In this document: one piece after another, positions 102 to 45,221 of the stretch
How the letters are laid out: each line of letters opens with the position of its first letter
Position numbering within the stretch: the first letter of the stretch is position 1
Origin: a virus
Lineage: Duplodnaviria > Heunggongvirae > Uroviricota > Caudoviricetes
DNA length: 47,925 bases
Reading direction: 5' to 3' (one strand)
Virus record (IMG/VR): IMGVR_UViG_3300045988_143263
Position numbers and translations under genes: made by a program
The notes under the pieces: generated by a model
Database searches by the model: none
Told to the model about the DNA's origin: nothing
What the model saw: the letters and a program-made list of their open reading frames with translations, nothing else

Positions 102-401
102 TCAGATGTTAAACGCTATTCGTTTTCCTGTGGGAAGCTCAACATCCAGGCTTAATTTGCCTCCCATAGCTTCAACGTAACGCTTTAATGTCGCCAGCTT
201 TAAATCATTTCCGCGCTGCTCCAGCTTTGTTACTGCTGGCTGGCTTATACCCATCGCCTCAGCAACCTGTTTTTGTGATAACTGGAGTTCTTCACGCATC
301 ATCTGCAAGCCGACCTCAAGAATCATCTCATCTGCCATTTCTTTAATTCGCGCCTGGCTTTCCGGTGAACGGCTGGCAATCGCCTCATCTAATGTTCTCA
401 T
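102..401 (-). CDS. higA: HigA-like antitoxin (HTH XRE-family DNA-binding protein)
   Basis: 99 aa; HTH segment SQKQVAEAMGISQPAVTKLEQ; immediately downstream of and overlapping a RelE/HigB-like toxin gene. Confidence 0.65.
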   Translation of the reverse strand: MRTLDEAIASRSPESQARIKEMADEMILEVGLQMMREELQLSQKQVAEAMGISQPAVTKLEQRGNDLKLATLKRYVEAMGGKLSLDVELPTGKRIAFNI

Positions 402-754
402 TACTTGCTCTCCAGTGTGTTCAGATGTGCTGCAAACTCATCCTCAGCTATACGCACCAGTTTTTCATAAAACCGCTTATCGTTACTTTTGTCTCCTGCA
501 CAAAGAACGATGGCCCGGCGAATCGGATCGAACGCATAAAAGGCTCTTATCGGACGGCCAGAAAACTGAACGCGAAGCTCTTTCATATTTTTGTACCGAG
601 AACCTTTTACGGTATCGGCATATGGCCTGGGTAACTCAGGTCCGTAAACCTGTAGCTTTTTCAAATCAGCCAAAACCTTTTCCTGAAGAGCGTCTTCTTG
701 CTCATTTAGCCAGTCGTCAAATCGCTGGCTAAAAAGTACCGTCCACATGCTCAA
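401..754 (-). CDS. higB: HigB/RelE-family toxin (Gp49-like addiction-module killer protein)
   Basis: 117 aa; N-terminus MWTVLFSQRFDDWL and overall pattern typical of phage Gp49/HigB-like toxins; toxin-first operon with HTH antitoxin. Confidence 0.65.
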   Translation of the reverse strand: MSMWTVLFSQRFDDWLNEQEDALQEKVLADLKKLQVYGPELPRPYADTVKGSRYKNMKELRVQFSGRPIRAFYAFDPIRRAIVLCAGDKSNDKRFYEKLVRIAEDEFAAHLNTLESK

Positions 755-757
755 TCC

Positions 758-803
758 TATAACCTGTAGTTTATATCACTAACTATATAACCTGTGAGTT
801 ATA
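758..803. promoter_or_regulatory. tandem operator-like repeats upstream of the TA operon
   Basis: Two copies of TATAACCTGT(A/G)GTT(T)ATA, each with internal dyad symmetry, directly upstream of the toxin start. Confidence 0.4.
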
Positions 804-992
804 ATTTCAAGAAAAACGGGGCTATTTAACATAATGGACGTTATCGGCACCACCGGATCACCGTTCATTGTCGGATCTAAAAAATCCGCTCAAAAGATCA
901 TGTTTTCCTAGGCGTTTTCCACCGTTTTTTATGTTGCTTATTTGTTAATGAAATCTCGTTTTCAGTTTCGCCTCATTTTCGACGCGAAAGCC

Positions 993-1283
993 CTATTTTT
1001 GTGACTTTACTCCTGGCATATGGACTTCCCAGCGACGAATCCCCATAGCTGCGCAAAAATCAGCCACATAATTCAATCCCGCCCATTCGCGGATACCACC
1101 ACGGGCTTTTTCAATGAAAACGGCAATCCCTTTTTTATTGAGAGCAAAAAGCCGCCAGCTTTTTGTCACTTCGTCCTGGGTAGCCACAACACAAGTGAAA
1201 GCTCCCATGCGATACAGGTCCAAGAACTCTTTGCGTGTTTTGCGTACAAGTTCCATAACAAACCTCATATTTGCATGTTTCAA
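993..1283 (-). CDS. hypothetical protein
   Basis: 96-aa ORF, codirectional with neighbours; no family recognised by eye. Confidence 0.35.
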   Translation of the reverse strand: MKHANMRFVMELVRKTRKEFLDLYRMGAFTCVVATQDEVTKSWRLFALNKKGIAVFIEKARGGIREWAGLNYVADFCAAMGIRRWEVHMPGVKSQK

Positions 1284-1579
1284 ACATCTGTTTTGTTATC
1301 AATGAAGATTAACCCTAACCCAGCGAAGTAACACAGCAGCGCCCAGGCTGCATACGGAATGCTGGATCTGGATGTGGACTCCTTTAACATCTGCCAGTTG
1401 CGAACATTGCGACTATCTTTTAAGCCTAGTTTTTTGGCCAACTGCGAGCCGCTCATTCCGGTCAGGCCAATGACTGCCCGAACTTCTCCACATGTAGGAG
1501 ATTCCCATTCATCCGCTTTTTTTAAACAAGCCGGATTCAACATTTTTAAAACAGTATCTTTATCCATAACCATCTCCAT
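1280..1579 (-). CDS. putative HTH DNA-binding protein (start may be an internal Met near 1567)
   Basis: 99-aa ORF with HTH-like segment GMSGSQLAKKLGLKDSRNVRNW. Confidence 0.35.
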   Translation of the reverse strand: MEMVMDKDTVLKMLNPACLKKADEWESPTCGEVRAVIGLTGMSGSQLAKKLGLKDSRNVRNWQMLKESTSRSSIPYAAWALLCYFAGLGLIFIDNKTDV

Positions 1580-1765
1580 TTATTATATCTACGATGGTAG
1601 GAAATCTTTTCCTATGTGGCAATAGAAATTTACTACATTGCGTATAAGACAAGTTTTCTATGTCTAATAGGAAATGATGTTTCTTACGTTTTATCGCGTT
1701 CTGATGGCTACTGTGTGCGTATTTATCGACGTTTATTGATAAGGCTCGCCCCTTCCTCCTGCAAA

Positions 1766-1926
1766 GCCCGGCCGTAGGCCTTATTTCGGCCTTATATAAA
1801 TTGATTTTGTATAGTTCGAAACGCGCCGTTTCGAAAAGGATGATCAGGCTGCTCCATGCCTCCGGCAAGTGCCGGAGGAGGTATATTTGAGCGTAGCGAC
1901 TCGAACCGGCGCGAGCTTTAGCTCGC
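1766..1926. repeat. cluster of GC-rich perfect palindromes
   Basis: ttcgaaacg-cgc-cgtttcgaa (1815..1835), cctccggca-ag-tgccggagg (1859..1878), gcgagc-ttta-gctcgc (1911..1926), plus ggcc-rich dyads at 1766..1800. Confidence 0.5.
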
Positions 1927-1959
1927 TGCAAGGGCGAACATATTCACAGGCAAAGCCTG

Positions 1960-2200
1960 CGTAAGTTAAATAAAGAAAGTCTTAATAAAAGAAAGTGATT
2001 TTGCATTTATTTGTTTAGTGCATCTATTATAAAAAACCATTTGCATATACATATCAAAACTGTGGATAACTTTATTAGCCGATGCCTGTAAAGGCGATAT
2101 TTTTGCTGTGTTCCGGTTTAGAGAAAATTAATTTAGATTGTTTTTTGAACAGATATTTTATTGCGACGTAGATAATCCTCCGGTAAAACCGGATTCATCA
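1960..2200. other. putative plasmid-type replication origin (AT-rich region with DnaA box) downstream of repA
   Basis: AT-rich tract 1960..2160 containing a perfect DnaA box TGTGGATAA at 2061..2069; lies 3' of the RepA gene as in IncFII oriR. Confidence 0.45.
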
Positions 2201-2210
2201 TTCAGGTGGG

Positions 2211-3059
2211 TTAATGTTGGAGTGATTTCCAGGTCTTTCTTAACCTGTTATAACGCTGCTCAACGAGGGATCGTAAATATGCAAGGTCAGCTCCAGGATA
2301 CATGCCATCAGCAAATTCCTGGCTAACCTCTCTAGTGATTTGATGACGAAGTTCGGCCTCTCCCTTTTCCCGAACAAGACGCGCAGCTCTCTCCGCTGCT
2401 TTCTGTTTTGCCTTTATCTCTCTGGCCGTCTTCCTCTGACGCCATACATTCTCCATCTGCTCCTGAATAACAATACGCTTATAATCAGCCTCCGTTATCG
2501 CTTTTTTAAGCCGTTCGCTATTCTTCGCATTGAAGTAATTAAGTTTCTGACTAACCGCACGTCTCCATGCTTGTTCAGTAATACCAACGGTTTCCAGCAG
2601 TTGATCACGAATCTCTATTTTCGCTGGCCAATACTGTTTATTCACCCGATCCCAGCGACGTTCATAATCAATAAAACCTAACGCTTTCAGTTGCGACAAC
2701 GCCCTTGTACAGCGCGTTATAGACTTGTTCCCAGCTTCGGATACGGTAGACAGGCCGCAAAAATCAGCCAACGCCTCAGCACTAGCCAGAACCCGCTTAG
2801 AAATGATGTTTACATGGTGCAAAATCGCAGCGATCACAGCATTAATCGCCCGACGACGATGCTCGTTTATCCGGCGCTTCCGCTCTGACGGTTGATTAAC
2901 GTAGAACGCAACCTCACACGTAAGATCACGCCCATTAATGCGCTGTAAAGCATCAGATAACACCAGCGGCAGCTTGTGCGTATGGTGCTTTGGAGGCTGG
3001 AACTCCGGCGACAAATTACAAACGTAAGCTGAACGTAGAGACGGCATTGGTCTATCCAT
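2211..3059 (-). CDS. repA: plasmid replication initiator RepA (IncFII RepA1-like)
   Basis: Segment GNKSITRCTRALSQLKALGFIDYE resembles the IncFII RepA1 core (…SITRATRAL…); start placed at internal MDRPMP (3059) rather than the ORF-track start at 3188, giving ~283 aa. Confidence 0.65.
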   Translation of the reverse strand: MDRPMPSLRSAYVCNLSPEFQPPKHHTHKLPLVLSDALQRINGRDLTCEVAFYVNQPSERKRRINEHRRRAINAVIAAILHHVNIISKRVLASAEALADFCGLSTVSEAGNKSITRCTRALSQLKALGFIDYERRWDRVNKQYWPAKIEIRDQLLETVGITEQAWRRAVSQKLNYFNAKNSERLKKAITEADYKRIVIQEQMENVWRQRKTAREIKAKQKAAERAARLVREKGEAELRHQITREVSQEFADGMYPGADLAYLRSLVEQRYNRLRKTWKSLQH

Positions 3060-3072
3060 ATGTTCGCTCTTG

Positions 3073-3185
3073 CGTCCACGGAAAACCAACGTATAATGGG
3101 AGTTGTCGAGGCGCCCATGGTTAATTGTTGGTTTTCCGTGGATGTCGCAAGAAGCCCGCAGATTTATCTGCGGGCTTTTTGTTTC
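3073..3185 (+). ncRNA. CopA-like antisense RNA in the repA leader (long imperfect hairpin plus terminator)
   Basis: Plus-strand inverted repeat 3074..3090 / 3127..3143 (16/17 bp), then a 12-bp perfect stem 3152..3177 followed by T5; antisense to the repA 5' region. Confidence 0.4.
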
Positions 3186-3369
3186 CATATCTGGTCACTT
3201 TCCAACCAGACACCCACAATCATAACCACGTTACGTGGTTTTAAGAGAACTCTACCACAACACTTTCGGTCATGCACGAAGTCTCTCACTGATCGAACGA
3301 TAATCCACCAGTAAAAGGATCTAAATTGGATCTCGTTTTGCGAGCATCATACTACTGGCCTAACTCCAG

Positions 3370-3924
3370 TCAATGATTCCCAGCCGGAAACCTGCGGTAA
3401 AGCGTGGATAAGGTAACATCGAAGATAATCGCTATCCGCTTACGTGAAACACCATTCGCAATAAGCCTTCCGATCTGTTCCCATTGCTCTGGTGCCAGCT
3501 TTGAGCGGCGTCCTCCTATCCTGCCGTTAGCCCTTGCCACCGCCAATCCTGCACGCGTTCTTTCAATCATATTTTCCCGCTCCATCTCTGCGACTGCACT
3601 CAGCATCGTGTAGGCAAAGCGGCCAATTGAAGTGCTAATTTTTATTCCTTCCGTAATCGAAATGAACTCAATGTTGTTTGATAAAAAATGGTTAAGTAAA
3701 TCAACAAGATGAATCAGAGAACGCCCCATTCGGTCCAGCTTCCAGACAATAACCGTATCGCCCGGTCGTAACACCTTCAGTAGCTTATCAAGTCCTGGTC
3801 GTTTTGATTTAGCACCGGATATTTTATCTTCAAAAATTCGGTCACATCCTGAACTCCTGAGCGCCTCCAGTTGTAATTCCAAATTCTGGTCAAAAGTTGA
3901 CACCCTCGCATAACCATATTGCAT
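3370..3924 (-). CDS. serine DNA invertase (Gin/Cin/Hin/Pin family)
   Basis: 184 aa; N-terminus MQYGYARVSTFDQNLELQ, resolvase catalytic domain and C-terminal HTH; adjacent to invertible tail-fibre segment. Confidence 0.85.
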   Translation of the reverse strand: MQYGYARVSTFDQNLELQLEALRSSGCDRIFEDKISGAKSKRPGLDKLLKVLRPGDTVIVWKLDRMGRSLIHLVDLLNHFLSNNIEFISITEGIKISTSIGRFAYTMLSAVAEMERENMIERTRAGLAVARANGRIGGRRSKLAPEQWEQIGRLIANGVSRKRIAIIFDVTLSTLYRRFPAGNH

Positions 3925-3988
3925 ACTTTCTAAACCGCGATTGTTGCTAAAAGCGGAAAAAAATATCGTTCAGACGACACAGAGGCAA

Positions 3989-4014
3989 TTCGCAAAAACC
4001 TCGGTTTACAGGAA
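3989..4014. other. gix-like inversion crossover site (left)
   Basis: Reverse complement reads TTCCTGTAAACCGAGGTTTTTGCGAA, closely matching the Mu gix consensus TTCCTGTAAACCGAGGTTTTGGATAA. Confidence 0.7.
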
Positions 4015-4038
4015 ACGGTAAACAGGGCTGGTAACGCC

Positions 4039-4875
4039 GTGCAAAAAAATGGCGATACCTTGTCCGGTGGGCTTACTTTTGAAAATGACTCAATCCTTGC
4101 CTGGATTCGAAATACTGACTGGGCGAAGATTGGATTTAAAAATGATGCCGATGGTGACACTGATTCATACATGTGGTTTGAAACAGGCGACAACGGCAAT
4201 GAATATTTCAAATGGAGAAGCCGCCAGAGCACCACAACAAAAGACCTGATGACGCTGAAATGGGATGCACTAAATATTCTGGTAAATGCCGTCATTAATG
4301 GCAGTCTTGGAGTTGGTACGACGAATGCGTTAGGTGGTAGCTCTATTGTTCTTGGTGATAATGACACCGGATTTAAACAGAATGGAGACGGTATTCTGGA
4401 TGTTTATGCTAATAGTCAGCGTGTATTCCGCTTTCAGAATGGAGTGGCTATTGCTTTTAAAAATATTCAGGCCGGGGATGGTAAAAAATTCACGCTATCC
4501 AGCTCCAACACCTCCACAAAGAATGCAACGTTTAATTTATGGGGTGCTTCAACCCGTCCAGTAGTTGCAGAGTTAGGCGATGAGGCAGGATGGCATTTCT
4601 ATAGCCAGCGAAATACAGATAACTCGGTAATATTTTCTGTTAACGGTCAGATACAGCCCAGCAACTGGGGGAATTTTGATTCACGCTATGTAAAAGATGT
4701 TCGCCTGGGTACGCGTGTTGTTCAATTGATGGCGCGTGGTGGTCGTTATGAAAAAGCCGGACACGCAATTACCGGATTAAGAATCATTGGTGAAGTAGAT
4801 GGCGATGATGAAGCCATCTTCAGACCAATACAAAAATACATCAATGGCACATGGTATAACGTAGCACAGGTGTAA
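4039..4875 (+). CDS. alternative tail-fibre C-terminal variable segment (silent orientation; would fuse to the constant region after inversion)
   Basis: In-frame upstream peptide …LGLQETVN… matches the junction in the active fibre gene; C-terminus RPIQKYINGTWYNVAQV parallels the active fibre's [17 protein letters not shown]. Confidence 0.6.
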   Translation: MQKNGDTLSGGLTFENDSILAWIRNTDWAKIGFKNDADGDTDSYMWFETGDNGNEYFKWRSRQSTTTKDLMTLKWDALNILVNAVINGSLGVGTTNALGGSSIVLGDNDTGFKQNGDGILDVYANSQRVFRFQNGVAIAFKNIQAGDGKKFTLSSSNTSTKNATFNLWGASTRPVVAELGDEAGWHFYSQRNTDNSVIFSVNGQIQPSNWGNFDSRYVKDVRLGTRVVQLMARGGRYEKAGHAITGLRIIGEVDGDDEAIFRPIQKYINGTWYNVAQV

Positions 4876-4878
4876 ATT

Positions 4879-5406
4879 ATGCAGCATTTAAAAAATATTA
4901 AGTCAGGAAATCCAAAAACAAAAGAACAATATCAGCTAACAAAAAATTTTGATGTTATCTGGTTATGGTCCGAAGACGGTAAAAACTGGTATGAGGAAGT
5001 AAATAACTTTCAGGACGACACCATAAAGATTGTATACGACGAGAATAATATTATTGTCGCCATCACCAAAGATGCCTCCACGCTTAACCCTGAAGGCTAT
5101 AGCGTCGTTGAGATTCCAGATATAACAGCCAATCGTCGTGCCGATGATTCAGGGAAGTGGATGTTTAAGGACGGAACTGTGGTTAAGCGGATTTATACAG
5201 CAGACGAACAGCAACAACAGGCCGAATCACAAAAGGCCGTGTTGCTTTCTGAAGCTGAAAGCGTTATTCAGCCACTGGAACGTGCTGTCAGGCTGAATAT
5301 GGCGACGGATGAGGAACGCACACGACTGGAGTCATGGGAACGCTACAGCGTTCTGGTCAGCCGTGTGGATACAGCAAAGCCCGAATGGCCACAAAAGCCT
5401 GAGTAA
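4879..5406 (+). CDS. tail-fibre assembly protein (alternative copy, U'-like)
   Basis: 175 aa, paralogous to 5435..5974 ([18 protein letters not shown] vs [17 protein letters not shown]). Confidence 0.7.
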
Positions 5407-5411
5407 AAATT

Positions 5412-5430
5412 AAGGCCCAATATTGGGCCT
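5412..5430. terminator. bidirectional hairpin between convergent tail-fibre assembly genes
   Basis: aaggcccaatattgggcctt perfect hairpin between the stops at 5406 and 5435. Confidence 0.4.
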
Positions 5431-5434
5431 TCTC

Positions 5435-5974
5435 TCATTCTGGTTGTTCGGGAAACGTTACTGGCAGGCTGGAGGTGTCTGTAGATTCGACTTTCTGCGC
5501 ATAGAGCATCCACTCGGTTAATTTTTGTTTATTCTCGTCGGAAATGATGCCCAGCCGTAGCTGTGAGTCCCATAGCTGGGTTTTGTCCCTGACAAGTTGC
5601 AACAGGCTTTGTTTTTCATTTTCCGCTTGTTGTCGCTGCTCTTCCTCGGTATAAGTTCGCTTTATCACCGCGCCATCTTTGAACATCCAGTTACCCGAAA
5701 TATCAGCCCGTCTATTGGCTGTTATATCAGGCAACTCAACAACGCTTAAACCTTCTGGATTAATTACCGATACATCCTTATCAATAGCAACAATAATTCC
5801 CTCTGCTGTGTAAGCTAGCTTTATTGTGTCTTCCTGAAAGTTCTTTTGTTCTTCATACCAGTTTTTACCGTCTTCGGACCATAACCAGACAACGCCTGAG
5901 TTTTTAGTTAACAGGTACTGCTCTTTGGTTTTTGGATTGCCGGGTTTTATATTTTTTAAATGCATCATATTCAA
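5435..5974 (-). CDS. tail-fibre assembly protein (active orientation, U-like)
   Basis: 179 aa; overlaps the tail-fibre stop by 4 nt; paralogue of 4879..5406. Confidence 0.7.
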
Positions 5975-8466
5975 ACACTCGATATGTTATACCATGTACC
6001 ATTGATATTTTTTTGAATTGGTCTGTAATAAACGCCACCAATATTATCAGCAGAGTTAGAGCCTGTATCCTGAACGATAATCCCGGTATATGCGCAACCA
6101 GATGGAGCCTGATGTGTCCATGTTGTACCATTATTGGCTGGTTTATATGATGATGCACCACCAAGCCGGATATCCCGGACATAGCGTGAATCAAAATTAC
6201 CGTAATCTGATGGGTTAACACGTCCAGTAACATTTAATCCATGCCCAATTGAAACAGCACCATTGGCGTTGTTAATAGTAAGTGGTCTTAAATTATTCCA
6301 TGAGCCAAATCTGTCACCAGATGCAGTCAGCATAAAATAAGAATCTTTGCCGTCATTTCTGATAAAGAAACCATAATTGCCATAAGCAACGCGCAGACCA
6401 TTGGCATAGAGCGATGTAATTTCACCTCTTGAACGAAGACCATAAGCAGAGCTGAGTGATAATTCTTCCTGAGCATCAGTATTACCGGTCGCCCAGCGAA
6501 TTACCCCGCCCTGTACTGTTTCATGCCAGATAGTGTCTCCTTCTCCACCACGAAACTTTCTGAGATATTTTTTGCCGCCTCTGGTGCCGTAACATAAGGC
6601 CGTAGACATATAGGCATTCTGGCTTCCACTATCCTGATTAATAGTTCCAGACATAGAATCGCCATAACGGTTCCAGTCACGCCGCCAGCCAGGAGCATAG
6701 TTGTCCCCGTGGTTAATATAAGTAAATTGCGCGCTTGTAGCGCCCCCACCGCTTGATGTTGTTGGTGTGGTAATACGAATAGTCATTGCAGACTTTATTC
6801 CCATTACCTCAATAACAGCGCCAGCAAGATGAATATTGCCACAGCCCGTATCGGTAATAAGTTTATTATTGGCATATGACCAGGAGCCTTTGCACATCCA
6901 GTATGGATGATTAAAAGCGCCTACCGAATCAAGCCACTCAATAAACTGAGCTGTAGTCCAGTTTCCACCTTCTGTGCTGTAAGAGCCGCTAAAAGCACGA
7001 GCTGCACTAATATTTTTTGCAAAAGTGTCTTTACTTGGAATATCTGCGCCGTTCTGGTTTTTCTGCAACGCGCCAGAAGCCTGATTTACCGTTTCCTGCA
7101 AACCGAGGTATTCGATAACGGCGGCAACGGTCGATTTCGCAAGAATATCCCGCCCGACTTTTGTCAGAGTTGCCAGGCTGGCGACATCATTCCCCGTAAA
7201 ATACGGAAACCTGTCTGCCGCAGTAGCAAGCCCGGCCAGCGCCGTCAGGGTGGCATCTTTCGGTTGCTTACCCGCAAGCGCGTTAGTCATGGTGGTCGCA
7301 AAATTCGGGTCATTGCCCAACGCCGCAGCCAGCTCGTTCAGCGTATTCAGTGCGTCAGGCGACGAGTCCACGAGGGCAGCGATCGCAGCCATAACATAAG
7401 CCGTGCTTGCGATCTGAGTATTGTTAGTACCTTTTGGCGCAGTTGGTGTTGTTGGTGTTCCGGTCAGCGCCGGACTGTTCAGGGGCGCTTTCTTGTTCGT
7501 TTCATCCATTACCACCTTTACAGCTTTCGATGTCGCGGCCAGTGTTTCAGACGTGCTGTTGGTGGCACTACTGAGCTGAGTTATTCCCCTTACAGTCAGT
7601 GAAGCTACAGGCACATTTGTTATCTGCTCCCACGAATGCGTGTGATTGGACGGAGCCTTTCCGGCCGCAAGATCATACGCTGCCTTAACAGCCTTTGGTG
7701 TTGCTGCCAGCGTTTCAGACGTGCTGTTGGTGGCACTACTGAGCTGAACAATCCCTTTTCGCGCTGTGGTAGCGTCCTGTGCGGTGTATTTAGCGTTAGC
7801 CAGGTCATATGCTGCCTTAACAGCCTTAGGCGTCGCAGCAAGCGTTTCAGACGTGCTATTGGTGGCGCTGCTAAGTTGAACAAAGCCTTTTAAGGTTAAA
7901 GTTGCATCAGGATGATTACGTGATTGCTCATGTTTCACAATGGCTTGCTTAAGCCGCTTTGCTGAAACAGCAAGGGAATCATCTGTACCTGCATCAATTT
8001 CTTGTTCATTAGCAAATCTTGCCACCCCAACAACAGTTTCGGTCGCGGGAGGATTAATAAACTCAATATCACCAAATGTAATATTTTTAGTATCAAGAGT
8101 TTTAATTGCTATATCACTTGATATTAAAGCGATAGTAGATGATGCTTTATTTATTATTGCTTGTTCTTGTGAGTATACAGCAAACAACGTACCCTTATTC
8201 GTATACAATCCTATTGTATGGACAACGTACTCATCTTTACTATCATCCTTCGCTGTTACATGAATTGTATCAGGGGAAACAACTTTGCCACCTATTGTGG
8301 TAAGTCGTTTTATTTCGTTTGTTATATTTGTTTGTGAAGTTGACGTGACATAATATCTACTACCTAAACCAACAGAAACAATCTCAACTTTATTTGTTCC
8401 TGTTTTGTTGGCATTAACCAGCTCCTGACGCCCGGCGTCAGTCATCGTAAATAATAATTTACTCAC
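5971..8466 (-). CDS. tail fibre protein (constant N-terminal region ~7106..8466 plus invertible C-terminal region)
   Basis: 831 aa; three internal repeats of [30 protein letters not shown]; C-terminal receptor-binding module shared with the alternative segment. Confidence 0.8.
7093..7118. other. gix-like inversion crossover site (right, inside tail-fibre gene)
   Basis: TTCCTGCAAACCGAGGTATTCGATAA, inverted relative to the left site; coincides with the LGLQETVN junction of the fibre protein. Confidence 0.7.
7540..7880. repeat. intragenic ~132-bp tandem repeats (three 44-aa repeat units in tail fibre)
   Basis: Near-identical blocks cgtttcagacgtgctgttggtggcactactgagctga at ~7540, ~7708 and ~7840. 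Confidence 0.6.
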
Positions 8467-8496: not shown

Positions 8497-9078
8497 TTAG
8501 CACTCGCCAATTAATCGTACATAAGACACAGGCTGACAAGCACCAACAATACCGACACCACCAGAAACATTGGCTGCTTGCGAAAATGTAAATAATGTTC
8601 TTGCCGACTTTGCGCTCTTGATACTTCTTAACGTATCTTCCAACATCTCTTTCGAAGGAACGGCACCATCAAAAGAGTTAATCGAAGCAACAATTGAGGC
8701 TGTATATGGTTCGCCAGGTGGTGATGTTTCAAACCATTCTGTTATGTTTACCTCTCCACCCAAGCTATTTACTACATCTTCAACCGCTGCCCTTGTACCC
8801 TTTATTCGCTTTGTTCGTATTATTGATTTAAAAACAGAGCGCTTTAACGATACAGGCCAACTATCCCTCCATGTATCAGCATTCCATTGCCAGGCTAAAT
8901 GATCGAGAACAACTGAATCCAGGTTATCAACAACGCTATATATTTCTGTCTTATATATTAAATTGTTAATTGCTTGTAGTTCATCATCGATAGCTTTCGA
9001 CATAGCTATCACGTTGGGATCTCTAGCTAAGTTAGGAGGTAAAACATCCAACAAGCTAACATTAAAGATATCAGCCAT
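8497..9078 (-). CDS. baseplate/tail protein (P2 gpI-like)
   Basis: 193 aa; position between baseplate J-like gene and tail fibre; gpI-like sequence character. Confidence 0.55.
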   Translation of the reverse strand: MADIFNVSLLDVLPPNLARDPNVIAMSKAIDDELQAINNLIYKTEIYSVVDNLDSVVLDHLAWQWNADTWRDSWPVSLKRSVFKSIIRTKRIKGTRAAVEDVVNSLGGEVNITEWFETSPPGEPYTASIVASINSFDGAVPSKEMLEDTLRSIKSAKSARTLFTFSQAANVSGGVGIVGACQPVSYVRLIGEC

Positions 9079-10195
9079 CCTCTAACCCCGCATACTGGCA
9101 ATTTATATTTCTCTCTCTGGCGACCTGCGTCTCTCCAACCACAGTAAATACAGGACTTGATATTTCTAATCTTTTAGCCCCGGCATTTTTTAAACGTTGA
9201 ATAATTTCATCTGGATTTATATCTCTTCCCATAACCGAACGTTGCCATTGTTTATACTCATCAATAGCTTTCTCAACCTCACTTTGAATTAAAGTTGTTC
9301 TGTTTTTGTCCGATGAGTTAATCCAGTATTTAATTATTATATCGTATTCAATGCTCTCTGGTTTCTTAACAAGAACTTTATCTGTGAATGGTCGAATATT
9401 AGTTGCAGAGAGAACGCTATTTATCTGCTCTAATAATTCATCAGAAGGTATATCTCCGTTCTCTAACAAAGAACGGATTTCTACAGTTCCGGGCGATGGT
9501 GTATATACATTCACATCTTTTATATTCTGATTGGCTGTTCTTGTCCAATATTTATAAGAATCCTCCGGCCCTGCTGTAGATAGTTTTTCCGGCGAAAGTT
9601 TTATTCTTTCAGCATAATTATCATCTGACTCTGTATCAGCACCAGAATTAGATGTTGTTAGATTCCTTACGCTGGAAACATACGGCAACGGAGTCACCAA
9701 CTCATTTATTTGCCCTGGTAAAAATCCATTCCCCGATAAACCAGGTATAACAGCATATCCTGAGACTGTACCAACTGTTTTCCCAGCTGGTATTTCCAAC
9801 AAAACATCTGTTTGGAAAATAACACTATTTCCAGTTGAAATTTGAGTGCCAGCAGGTATTGTATATATCCCCGATAATTTTGTTGACAGATTAAACTCAA
9901 ATGTAGTCAAGGCAGATTGAGCTTCCAGCCTAGGCGTATCCGTCAGATAGCCTATATGGTCGAGATATTCACCTTCACCATATGTAAGAAGGTTTTGTTT
10001 TGCAGAAAAATCGATAGCTTTTCTTTGCTGTATAATAATCTCACACAATGATAAGATGAATAATCTACGTGGATCAGCAGGTGCTAATGTTTCACCTGTT
10101 ATACTCTCAAAAGCCCTGATTGAACGAGTTGTTATATCAGTCGGGTTAGAATCTGCGAAAGTAATATCTGGCAAACCACCGCGCGGCAACGTCAT
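9071..10195 (-). CDS. baseplate protein J-like
   Basis: 374 aa; size and position between the gp25/W-like and I-like genes, conserved myovirus baseplate order. Confidence 0.65.
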   Translation of the reverse strand: MTLPRGGLPDITFADSNPTDITTRSIRAFESITGETLAPADPRRLFILSLCEIIIQQRKAIDFSAKQNLLTYGEGEYLDHIGYLTDTPRLEAQSALTTFEFNLSTKLSGIYTIPAGTQISTGNSVIFQTDVLLEIPAGKTVGTVSGYAVIPGLSGNGFLPGQINELVTPLPYVSSVRNLTTSNSGADTESDDNYAERIKLSPEKLSTAGPEDSYKYWTRTANQNIKDVNVYTPSPGTVEIRSLLENGDIPSDELLEQINSVLSATNIRPFTDKVLVKKPESIEYDIIIKYWINSSDKNRTTLIQSEVEKAIDEYKQWQRSVMGRDINPDEIIQRLKNAGAKRLEISSPVFTVVGETQVARERNINCQYAGLEDG

Positions 10196-33151: not shown

Positions 33152-33227
33152 TGGTGGCCCCTACCGGATTTGAACCGATGACCGTGCGATTATGAGTCGC
33201 CTGCTCTAACCACTGAGCTAAGGGGCC
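33152..33227 (-). tRNA. tRNA with CAU anticodon (tRNA-Ile2/Met-like)
   Basis: 76 nt; cloverleaf with acceptor GGCCCCU/AGGGGCC, GCUC/GAGC D-stem, anticodon loop CUCAUAA, GGUUCAAAUCC T-arm and 3' CCA; 5' half resembles E. coli ileX from memory. Confidence 0.8.
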
Positions 33228-43662: not shown

Positions 43663-43686
43663 AAAAAAAGGCCCCCGAAGGGGCCT
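43663..43686 (-). terminator. rho-independent terminator (minus strand; hairpin shared with plus-strand gene end)
   Basis: ggcccc-cgaa-ggggcc 7-bp stem; A7 run on plus strand gives a U7 tail on the minus strand. Confidence 0.5.
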
Positions 43687-43691
43687 AATCG

Positions 43692-43814
43692 CTACTTGCT
43701 GCTAATGTTTATCGTCACATTCAGAGCGTTATCAGTAATCTTCCAACCCTCCCCATGTGGCGTAAACAAAGCTCCAGTAACAACGATAAAAATACACATG
43801 TAGTATTTTTTCAT
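43692..43814 (-). CDS. small hydrophobic peptide (signal-peptide or membrane-like)
   Basis: 41 aa MKKYYMCIFIVVTGALFTPHGEGWKITDNALNVTINISSK; followed by a terminator; ~170-nt structured upstream leader. Confidence 0.3.
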   Translation of the reverse strand: MKKYYMCIFIVVTGALFTPHGEGWKITDNALNVTINISSK

Positions 43815-44231
43815 TGTGTGGCCCTTACAGGCCGTTTCACGGCATCCCCACCGACGAAAATGACGCGAGAGCAAGCACGCTGTTTGTGCCTGCGTGGTAC
43901 GGCAAGTGGATAATCCTTTCCTGAAAGTCGGTGCCCGGTTGCGAATCGGCGAAAAGGCCCCGCGTAATGTTACACCGCAGCCCCTTCATAATGAAGGGAT
44001 AAAAATGTATTGTTTTTCATTAAGTTAAATACACACCACAAAAATCACTCGCTTTTGTGCTCTAACAAACCAAATTTATTTGGACAATTTTATTCAGTTA
44101 GGTAAGAATATGATTGCTGTTTGTGCTTGCGTGGTTGTATTTATACAACAACGTAATGCTGAAAGGACCGCGAATCCGATCAGCACGAAAGAACCGTCCT
44201 CAATAGGGCGGTTTTTTTGTTTCTTCACTCA

Positions 44232-44959: not shown

Positions 44960-45056
44960 CGCCATTGGTGGACACTTTCCGAGCCGTAGCAAAATCTACG
45001 GCCGGGATTGGAACCCCGTAGACACAATGGCGCATACCGCGTTAGCGGTTTTTTTA
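44960..45056 (+). ncRNA. candidate c4-like regulatory small RNA
   Basis: Three predicted hairpins (44984..45001, 45002..45018, 45036..45048) ending in T7; two blocks are complementary to the downstream leader at 45128..45148. Confidence 0.35.
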
Positions 45057-45221
45057 TGCGTAAAGCACTGCTACACCCAAATTATGGTGGGGCGTGCGGG
45101 GGAGTCGTAAGACTCGCCGGTTCGTCATTGTGTCCGGTAGTTCCAACCCTGCACGTCTCACCACCCAATGATTGGAACCTGACGGTGGTGAGTATCCTTA
45201 ACCTTTAAGGGAATCATCACA

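Follow-up and report, generated by a model that had tools for sequence, protein, structure and literature searches.

The question raised by this locus is whether an invertase gene, the inverted recombination sites beside it and two sets of tail-fibre genes together form a switch, and whether that switch still works. The analysis covered the whole stretch of 47,925 nucleotides, referred to here as the window, and the features found are collected in Table 1. The locus is explained, with high confidence, as a host-range switch that has two states and is driven by the invertase, of the Mu G or P1 C type and carried on a phage-plasmid of ~48 kb. The tail-fibre switch is real and very probably active. 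The mechanism of Gin, Cin, Hin and Pin has been understood for decades; the Mu/P1-type DNA switch is a well-known one, and the tail-fibre switch described here is a further example of it that implies no new mechanism.

Table 1. Coordinates of the invertase, the recombination sites, the invertible segment and the neighbouring genes in the window
Feature	Position	Strand	Remarks
repA ORF, IncFII-type RepA	2211-3188	-	
Serine DNA invertase, 184 aa, Gin/Cin/Hin-type small serine recombinase	3370-3924	-	Resolvase + HTH_7
Putative Fis-dependent recombinational enhancer	3839-3906	.	Invertase gene nt 19-86, 5' end; predicted
Left gix-like site, invertase-proximal	3989-4014		TTCGCAAAAACCTCGGTTTACAGGAA; central dinucleotide 4001-4002; 3/26 mismatches to Mu gix
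Alternative fibre tip, silent (Sv', tip A)	4003-4875	+	Frame open from crossover point; Pfam Gp34_trimer match
Chaperone a for tail-fibre assembly (Mu U-like), paired with tip A	4879-5406	+	Pfam Caudo_TAP, E 1.2e-35
Chaperone b for tail-fibre assembly (Mu U'-like), paired with tip B	5435-5974	-	Pfam Caudo_TAP, E 2.6e-35
Fibre tip now expressed (Sv, tip B)	5971-7104	-	Last 370 residues of the 831-aa fibre
Right (distal) gix-like site, within the fibre gene	7093-7118		TTCCTGCAAACCGAGGTATTCGATAA; central dinucleotide 7105-7106; 3/26 mismatches
Constant N-terminal fibre part (Sc)	7105-8466	-	Phage_fiber_2 repeats; 461 residues common to both orientations

The recombinase belongs with the DNA invertases. 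It matches the Pfam families Resolvase (E 2.6e-44) and HTH_7 (E 2.9e-13), its best match among solved structures is Gin (3UJ3) with 211 bits compared with 110 bits for gamma-delta resolvase and 99 bits for Tn3 resolvase, and its C-terminus matches the HTH domain of Hin (1HCR, E 3e-6). The amino acid identity is 51% to Gin and 55% to P7 Cin, while Gin and Cin are 72% identical to each other. The reading frame is intact and Ser9 is aligned with Ser9 of Gin, the residue described as catalytic in that enzyme (PMC3575834). Met114, the position at which a change to valine (M114V) abolishes the Fis requirement of Gin (PMC3575834), is also conserved, and His106 of Gin is replaced by Thr. When species-representative genomes were scanned with the invertase, just distant recombinases with at most 49% identity and no informative context were found.

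The two gix-like sites are inverted, lying on opposite strands. With Mu gix (TTCCTGTAAACCGAGGTTTTGGATAA) as reference, matches with 3 mismatches were found at these two positions only in the 47,925 bases; 100 shuffles gave 0 matches and none is expected by chance. No further good site was found in the window by a looser core-pattern search. A multiple-inversion system such as p15B Min or the R64 shufflon was considered and rejected, since more than two sites are needed for it and the window holds two. Both sites have the gix-type central dinucleotide GA/TC, in inverted arrangement, and the inner half of the left site is the Mu inner half without change. Around the sites the inverted repeat reaches 55 nt (3995-4049 against 7058-7112, 78% complementary).

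The segment measures 3,130 bp between the site edges and 3,106 bp between the crossover points, and the two cassettes, each of a tip and a chaperone, converge between the sites. In the deposited orientation tip B is fused to the constant part, which is located downstream of P2 I/J-like baseplate genes (8497-10195), and the gene reaches 8466 on the minus strand. Tip A lacks a start codon of its own and becomes readable after inversion only; both this silent tip and its chaperone a are intact ORFs. The true start of chaperone b is likely the ATG at 5968. The fibre reading frame runs through the right site, which encodes part of the common ...YLGLQETVN, of which LGLQETVN corresponds to fibre residues 454-461. 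An in silico flip of 4001-7106 replaced the 831-aa fibre by one of 744 aa with the ORF still open, and the two versions are identical over residues 1-461 and split from residue 462.

The original prediction, a Gin/Cin-type invertible fibre switch, therefore agrees with what was found, as all structural elements are present and intact. The invertase that it placed next to the segment scores far higher against Gin than against resolvases and lies 64 bp from the left site. The predicted inverted 26-bp sites were confirmed, with 3 mismatches in each and no match by chance, and the alignment with gix that had been proposed gave agreement at 23 of 26 positions for each of them. The alternative C-terminal modules do diverge at the right site, after LGLQETVN and from residue 462, and a segment of ~3.1 kb with two tips and two chaperones in opposite orientation is seen in both the ORFs and the Pfam matches.

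In the proposed mechanism the 184-aa serine invertase would bind, as dimers, to both inverted 26-bp gix-like sites, and the sites would be brought into synapsis, probably with host Fis on an enhancer in the 5' end of the invertase gene. Ser9 would then cut all four strands at the central 2-bp GA/TC, one dimer pair would turn 180 degrees and the strands would be rejoined, leaving the 3,106-bp stretch from 4001 to 7106 inverted. Because the distal site is in frame within the fibre gene, inversion would fuse the constant 461 residues to either tip, and each alternative tip would be followed by its own chaperone. In the present orientation the late operon would read the Mu S'-like tip and the U'-like chaperone, giving the 831-aa fibre; in the flipped orientation it would read the Mu S-like tip and the U-like chaperone, giving the 744-aa fibre. 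Homology to Mu and P1 suggests that the inversion may change host range; the tips are 45-54% identical to those of Mu and P7. The switch would let a widespread phage-plasmid family show two receptor-binding tips.

The candidate enhancer was placed by likeness to known systems. In the Gin/Cin/Hin/Pin family the enhancer acts in cis and has two Fis sites ~48 bp apart near the start of the invertase gene, and recombination relies on host Fis and on DNA supercoiling. Fis-like 15-mers begin at nt 22/23 and 71 of the invertase gene, just as they do in Mu gin, and the position matches that of the P7 cin enhancer, annotated at nt 19-86. Synonymous variation among 18 related invertase genes was 0.29 in codons 7-35 against 0.47, which is rank 3 of 146 blocks from the low end; the bases of the candidate Fis sites also encode conserved amino acids, which partly account for their conservation. 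Together these likenesses point to an inversion that may depend on Fis and the enhancer.

Inversion was observed in a sibling element, the 48,488-bp plasmid of E. coli ATCC 25922. The recombination sites of this plasmid are identical to those of the window and its invertase is identical at 183 of 184 residues, S25L being the sole difference. Independent assemblies of the plasmid hold the segment in both orientations. In the comparisons of NZ_CP009073 with NZ_CP158444 and with p25POL-A, the assemblies differ by a clean inversion, with 99.97% identity in the segment and 99.9% in the flanks, and the junctions carry hybrid outer/inner half-sites. The inner half-sites of the relatives differ at one base (TTTACAGGAA versus TTTGCAGGAA), and this marker changes sides among them while the outer halves are fixed; between the two ATCC 25922 assemblies of the same strain it travelled with the segment. 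Since the inner marker moves and the outer halves do not, the exchange is located within ~11 bp that include the central dinucleotide. The segment of the ATCC 25922 plasmid thus inverts with exchange at the site centre.

The ~48-kb phage-plasmid family to which both elements belong is found in E. coli (including ATCC 25922), E. fergusonii, E. albertii and Klebsiella, and it includes phages isolated on Yersinia pestis. No paper on this family or its switch was found in the literature search. The pSLy3 group is a separate family within the SSU5 supergroup, whose members are ~100 kb in size; Yersinia phage HQ103 is P2-like and measures 32 kb, and a paper on ETEC phage-plasmids covers P1 and SSU5 types. 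Assemblies of the same plasmid disagree in the segment, and one tip has been annotated as a truncated pseudogene. For annotation and comparative work the two orientations are to be regarded as one element.

Two of the Yersinia phages bear on the number of states. The invertase of vB_YpM_39 is 100% identical to that of the window, but the phage was rejected as a simple flipped copy as its tips differ. Phage vB_YpM_44 has the same two tips, with the chaperone pair not flipped together with them, and an inner inverted repeat of 216 nt (95%) runs across the 3' ends of its tips and the 5' ends of its chaperones. Either homologous recombination or action of the invertase at cryptic sites could produce a nested inversion of this kind. 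That the segment has more than two states in this way, with tips and chaperones re-paired into four combinations, is improbable.

A two-state switch is preferred, and it may be asked whether it still operates. A frozen relic, in which a Mu/P1-like ancestral switch no longer inverts in this element and the current fibre is the sole product, is very unlikely. In the collections of plasmids, phages and E. coli genomes no record has the window's exact tip pair at near identity in either orientation, a flipped copy of the exact segment included, and the invertase lineage is divergent, with 51-55% identity to Gin and Cin. Decay would however be hard to reconcile with an intact invertase ORF with catalytic Ser9, with a gix core and matching central dinucleotides kept in both sites, and with a silent tip and chaperone that are intact ORFs, the chaperone being 96% identical to Mu U. 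Both orientations are moreover known for the plasmid with identical sites and a nearly identical invertase. Because the exact tip pair has no flipped record, the case for activity in the window molecule rests on this sibling plasmid, from which we infer that the switch is active here as well.

There is very little chance that the orientation differences reflect RecA-dependent homologous recombination between inverted repeats of 55-83 nt and not the invertase. Longer inverted repeats (55 nt and 78% in the window, 83 nt and 93% in the ATCC 25922 plasmid) do have the sites at their outer edge, and vB_YpM_44 has apparently been rearranged, in a nested manner, between other inverted repeats without a gix-like site. 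The exchange point in the ATCC 25922 plasmid nevertheless falls between the single-base difference of the inner half-site and the differences of the outer half-sites, an interval of ~11 bp at the edge of the repeat that has the crossover dinucleotide at its centre. Homologous exchange would not be efficient over so few bases, and the interval coincides with the cut point of a serine invertase.

The invertase-driven switch is also preferred over a role in plasmid maintenance. That the recombinase mainly serves the plasmid, by multimer resolution or control of repA expression, with fibre inversion as a secondary effect, is barely credible: the two genes share a strand, the interval between them showed no terminator-like site, the invertase stop codon is overlapped by a promoter-like site and the adjacency is kept in the close family, but the protein groups with invertases and not resolvases, the repA leader and the rest of the window are without an additional gix-like site or half-site, and invertases of 77-88% identity have no adjacent repA wherever the fetched locus extends past the gene. 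Replication as the main role of the invertase was rejected on the same grounds.

The placement directly upstream of the repA leader had been called unusual in the original prediction. The adjacency is real, and 181 bp separate the invertase stop codon from the annotated repA ORF downstream of it, but a mechanistic meaning is not supported; nothing ties inversion to replication. In IncFII (R1-type) replicons this spot is occupied by copB. Conserved within the close ~48-kb family only, the adjacency looks like a juxtaposition of modules. A CopA-type RNA in the repA leader was rejected, as Rfam gave just a weak sub-threshold likeness to a hairpin or terminator (Thr_leader, 31.9 bits with a cut-off of 55). 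A P1-type C4 antisense RNA is also present in the window.

The closest structural parallel is the G segment of Mu, which has the same order of constant fibre part, site, tip with chaperone, convergent chaperone with tip, site and invertase. The length is ~3.1 kb in both. In DNA comparisons the segment is ~84-85% identical to Mu G and P7 C, and the Mu match, of ~85%, covers a third of the query. The sites of the window share the central dinucleotide and the inner half with Mu gix and depart from it at 3 of 26 positions. Chaperone a is 96% identical to U and chaperone b 85% to U', tip A is 46% identical to S (G+) and tip B 45% to S' (G-), so that the Mu pairing of S with U and S' with U' is mirrored in the tip-chaperone pairs of the window. 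The invertase, in contrast, is just 51% identical to Gin. Mu is a transposable phage with com/mom after the invertase, whereas the present element, a circular phage-plasmid, combines an IncFII-type RepA with a P2-like baseplate and has repA in that place.

P1 and P7 are likewise plasmid prophages with an invertase beside an invertible tail-fibre segment. The invertase of the window is 55% identical to P7 Cin, and the annotated enhancer at cin nt 19-86 is placed like the candidate enhancer. Of the P7 tips, Sv' has 54% identity to tip A and Sv 45% to tip B. The cix sites differ in their TT/AA centre and in both outer and inner halves, the C segment is ~4 kb with longer tips, and the P1 and P7 elements are 94-100 kb compared with ~48 kb.

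After the Yersinia vB_YpM phages, the closest named invertases are those of Salmonella phage SJ46 (annotated as pin, 88%) and Escherichia phage Eeyore (82%), and those of P2-like prophages of Fels-2 type are ~60% identical. In an SJ46-like contig (L011) inverted sites flank fibre and chaperone genes as in the window, but the centre of the SJ46-type sites is AA/TT, like that of cix and unlike GA/TC, and no IncFII-type repA adjoins the invertase in those elements as far as the fetched loci extend. The Hin system of Salmonella shares the enzyme family and the logic of two sites and an enhancer; Hin inverts the H segment and thereby flips a promoter of flagellin genes, whereas the segment in the window is an in-frame coding part of the tail fibre.

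A Gin-like inversion that swaps a fibre tip and chaperone cassette is, with high confidence, the best explanation of the locus. The feature order obtained from the ORF list and a Pfam scan shows two tips and two chaperones in opposite orientation between the recombination sites, as the original prediction had it.

Features of the invertible locus and its flanks, in window coordinates
Feature	Position	Strand	Basis
Serine recombinase, 184-aa invertase gene	3370-3924	-	Pfam Resolvase + HTH_7
Left site	3989-4014	.	gix match
Silent tip, open frame	4003-4875	+	Gp34_trimer match
Chaperone	4879-5406	+	Caudo_TAP
Second chaperone	5435-5974	-	Caudo_TAP
Tail-fibre gene, 831 aa, right site inside	5971-8466	-	ORF
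P2 I/J-like baseplate genes, upstream of fibre gene	8497-10195	-	ORF list/Pfam

The two 26-bp sites, read directly from the sequence, lie where they had been predicted, the left one being TTCGCAAAAACCTCGGTTTACAGGAA and the right one (7093-7118) TTCCTGCAAACCGAGGTATTCGATAA. A search of the window with Mu gix, allowing at most 3 mismatches, gave exactly two matches, on opposite strands, which are these two sites, and 0 matches were obtained in 100 shuffles. No further convincing site was found with a looser core pattern across the 47,925 bases. The central dinucleotide is asymmetric in each of them, as in gix (TC at 4001-4002, GA at 7105-7106), and the pair was detected by the repeat finder as a 55-nt inverted repeat. 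Compared with Mu, the segment-facing half of each site and 15 bases beyond it are identical.

Inversion of 4001-7106 in silico keeps the fibre frame open and changes the product from 831 to 744 residues. Residues 1-461 are the same, up to ...YLGLQETVN, and the C-terminus differs, in agreement with the claim that the right site is placed inside the fibre gene at a shared LGLQETVN junction after which the tips diverge. The segment DNA is approximately 84-85% identical to the Mu G, D108 and P7 C segments. One chaperone is 96% identical to Mu U and the other 85% to Mu U', while the silent tip, read only after inversion, is 46-54% identical to Mu S and P7 Sv' and the expressed tip 45% to Mu S' and P7 Sv. 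By identity the tips are thus S-like and S'-like and the chaperones U-like and U'-like, and the tip-chaperone pairing is therefore canonical. The constant fibre part includes three Phage_fiber_2 repeats, to which three diverged 93-nt direct repeats at 7499-7891 (-) correspond. Fibre length varies at these repeats among relatives, which suggests that the number of units varies.

The relatives of the window are circular phage-plasmids of about 48 kb, a family found in E. coli, E. fergusonii, E. albertii and Klebsiella that also includes phages isolated on Yersinia pestis. The exact tip pair of the window was found in no record of the phage, plasmid or E. coli collections searched. The 48,488-bp plasmid of E. 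coli ATCC 25922 has both 26-bp sites identical to those of the window and an invertase with one residue different (S25L). With its locus as query against the E. coli genome collection, six records matched at full length, in one orientation, and three matched the segment alone (query 500-3570 in one; 503-3573 or 503-3576 in two), with 100% identity in two of these and 98.6% in the third. Aligned directly, NZ_CP009073 differs by a clean inversion from NZ_CP158444, another ATCC 25922 record, and from p25POL-A, with 99.9% identity in the flanks and 99.97% in the segment, which matches on the opposite strand. That the switch is a frozen relic which no longer inverts is accordingly very improbable, the parts being intact and a sibling plasmid flipping. 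In a further ATCC 25922 assembly, NZ_CP032086.1, the 48-kb phage-plasmid sequence is part of a 94,204-bp replicon and matches at 10 places, which could reflect a dimer, a cointegrate or an artefact of assembly.

The junction sites of the inverted pair are hybrids, with the outer half of one site and the inner half of the other. A one-base difference in the inner half-site (TTTACAGGAA versus TTTGCAGGAA) moves with the segment in the ATCC 25922 pair, and in vB_YpM_44 and pP136-7 it is on the other side than in the window. Together with the outer-half differences, this marker narrows the exchange down to some 11 bp surrounding the central dinucleotide. This interval is where a serine invertase cuts, and at such a length homologous recombination would be inefficient, so that the breakpoint mapping argues against recombination between the inverted repeats, which has little probability left. 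In the Gin-like reaction, invertase dimers would bind both sites and Fis and the enhancer would assist synapsis. Ser9-mediated cleavage at the central dinucleotide, subunit rotation and strand rejoining would then change which tip and chaperone cassette comes after the constant fibre part in the late operon.

The gene is already annotated as a DNA invertase in database records. The top solved-structure match of the protein is Gin (3UJ3, 211 bits), compared with 110 bits for gamma-delta resolvase and 99 bits for Tn3 resolvase. The identity is 51% to Gin and 55% to P7 Cin, with 72% between Gin and Cin, and by sequence comparison the invertase is assigned to a separate lineage. The nearest relatives are found in Yersinia phages vB_YpM_39, 41 and 44 (99-100%), followed by Salmonella phage SJ46 (88%), Escherichia phage Eeyore (82%) and P2-like prophages (about 60%). 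Ser9, the nucleophile of Gin, and Met114, which when changed to Val abolishes the Fis requirement of Gin (PMC3575834), are both kept; Gin His106 is replaced by Thr.

The P7 record annotates an enhancer at cin nt 19-86. Fis-like 15-mers occur at the same codon positions in the window's invertase gene (GTGTCAACTTTTGAC from nt 22, GTTCAGGATGTGACC from nt 71) and at the corresponding positions in Mu gin. In a set of 18 distinct related invertase genes, codons 7-35 show few synonymous differences (0.29 versus 0.47 elsewhere), the third lowest of 146 sliding blocks. This would fit a putative embedded cis element, but conserved residues are encoded by the same region.

The invertase gene had also been described as lying directly upstream of the repA leader. 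The adjacency is real (stop at 3370, 181 bp from the annotated repA start at 3188) and conserved in the close family, but is not supported as anything mechanistic; it is absent in relatives with 77-88% invertase identity, in all loci compared that extend past the gene. A primary role of the invertase in plasmid biology, which the adjacency might suggest, is for the same reason most unlikely; moreover, the window has no extra sites and the protein is of the invertase and not the resolvase type. The arrangement looks like a late operon whose end meets the replication module. There is also a promoter-like TTGACT-16-TATGAT at 3373-3346 (-), overlapping the stop codon of the invertase gene. As annotated, the repA ORF probably extends too far in the 5' direction, given that family models start only at residue 52-57. 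In the repA leader (3060-3373), plus strand 3074-3184 contains hairpins ending in a strong terminator; they are antisense to the repA mRNA and overlap about the first 40 codons of the ORF as annotated. These would suit a CopA/Inc-type antisense RNA; Rfam gave no family at threshold for this hairpin region. Next to the replication region, at 102-754 (-), are two overlapping small ORFs whose annotations in sibling records describe a plasmid addiction module: a toxin of the RelE/ParE or HigB type with an HTH antitoxin. Elsewhere, Rfam matches above gathering score were a C4 antisense RNA of the P1/P7 immunity type at 45080-45168 (+), isrK at 44983-45055 (+) and ryfA at 43664-43962 (-), which suggests a P1-like immunity region in the phage-plasmid. 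The element also has a tRNA-Met (CAT) gene, at 33152-33227 (-).

Two related records show a different arrangement. In Yersinia phage vB_YpM_44 (3999-7115; window 4821-6025) both window tips are present (99.7% and 98.6% aa) with positions swapped and the chaperone pair keeps the window's orientation, placing the S'-like tip beside the U-like chaperone and the S-like tip beside the U'-like. In that phage an inner inverted repeat of 216 nt (95%) spans the 3' ends of the tips and the 5' ends of the chaperones; the window has repeats of 43 nt (88%) and 160 nt (81%). Possible origins are a nested inversion, gene conversion, or a mixed population assembled as a chimera. The record IMGVR_UViG_2579778982_000025 (1035-6488) has an invertase 100% and a RepA 99% identical to those of the window. 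At its far segment end, the place of the constant fibre part is taken by a Mu-type outer half-site, TTATCTAAAACC, and another invertase gene, which is 56% identical. The structure resembles a cointegrate, in which two elements exchanged site by site, or else a chimeric assembly.

A literature search found no paper on the switch in this phage-plasmid family. With its gix-type sites and its chaperones of the Mu type, the system is of the kind known from Mu Gin/G and P1/P7 Cin/C, and differs from them in its distinct invertase lineage, its new tips and its host replicon.
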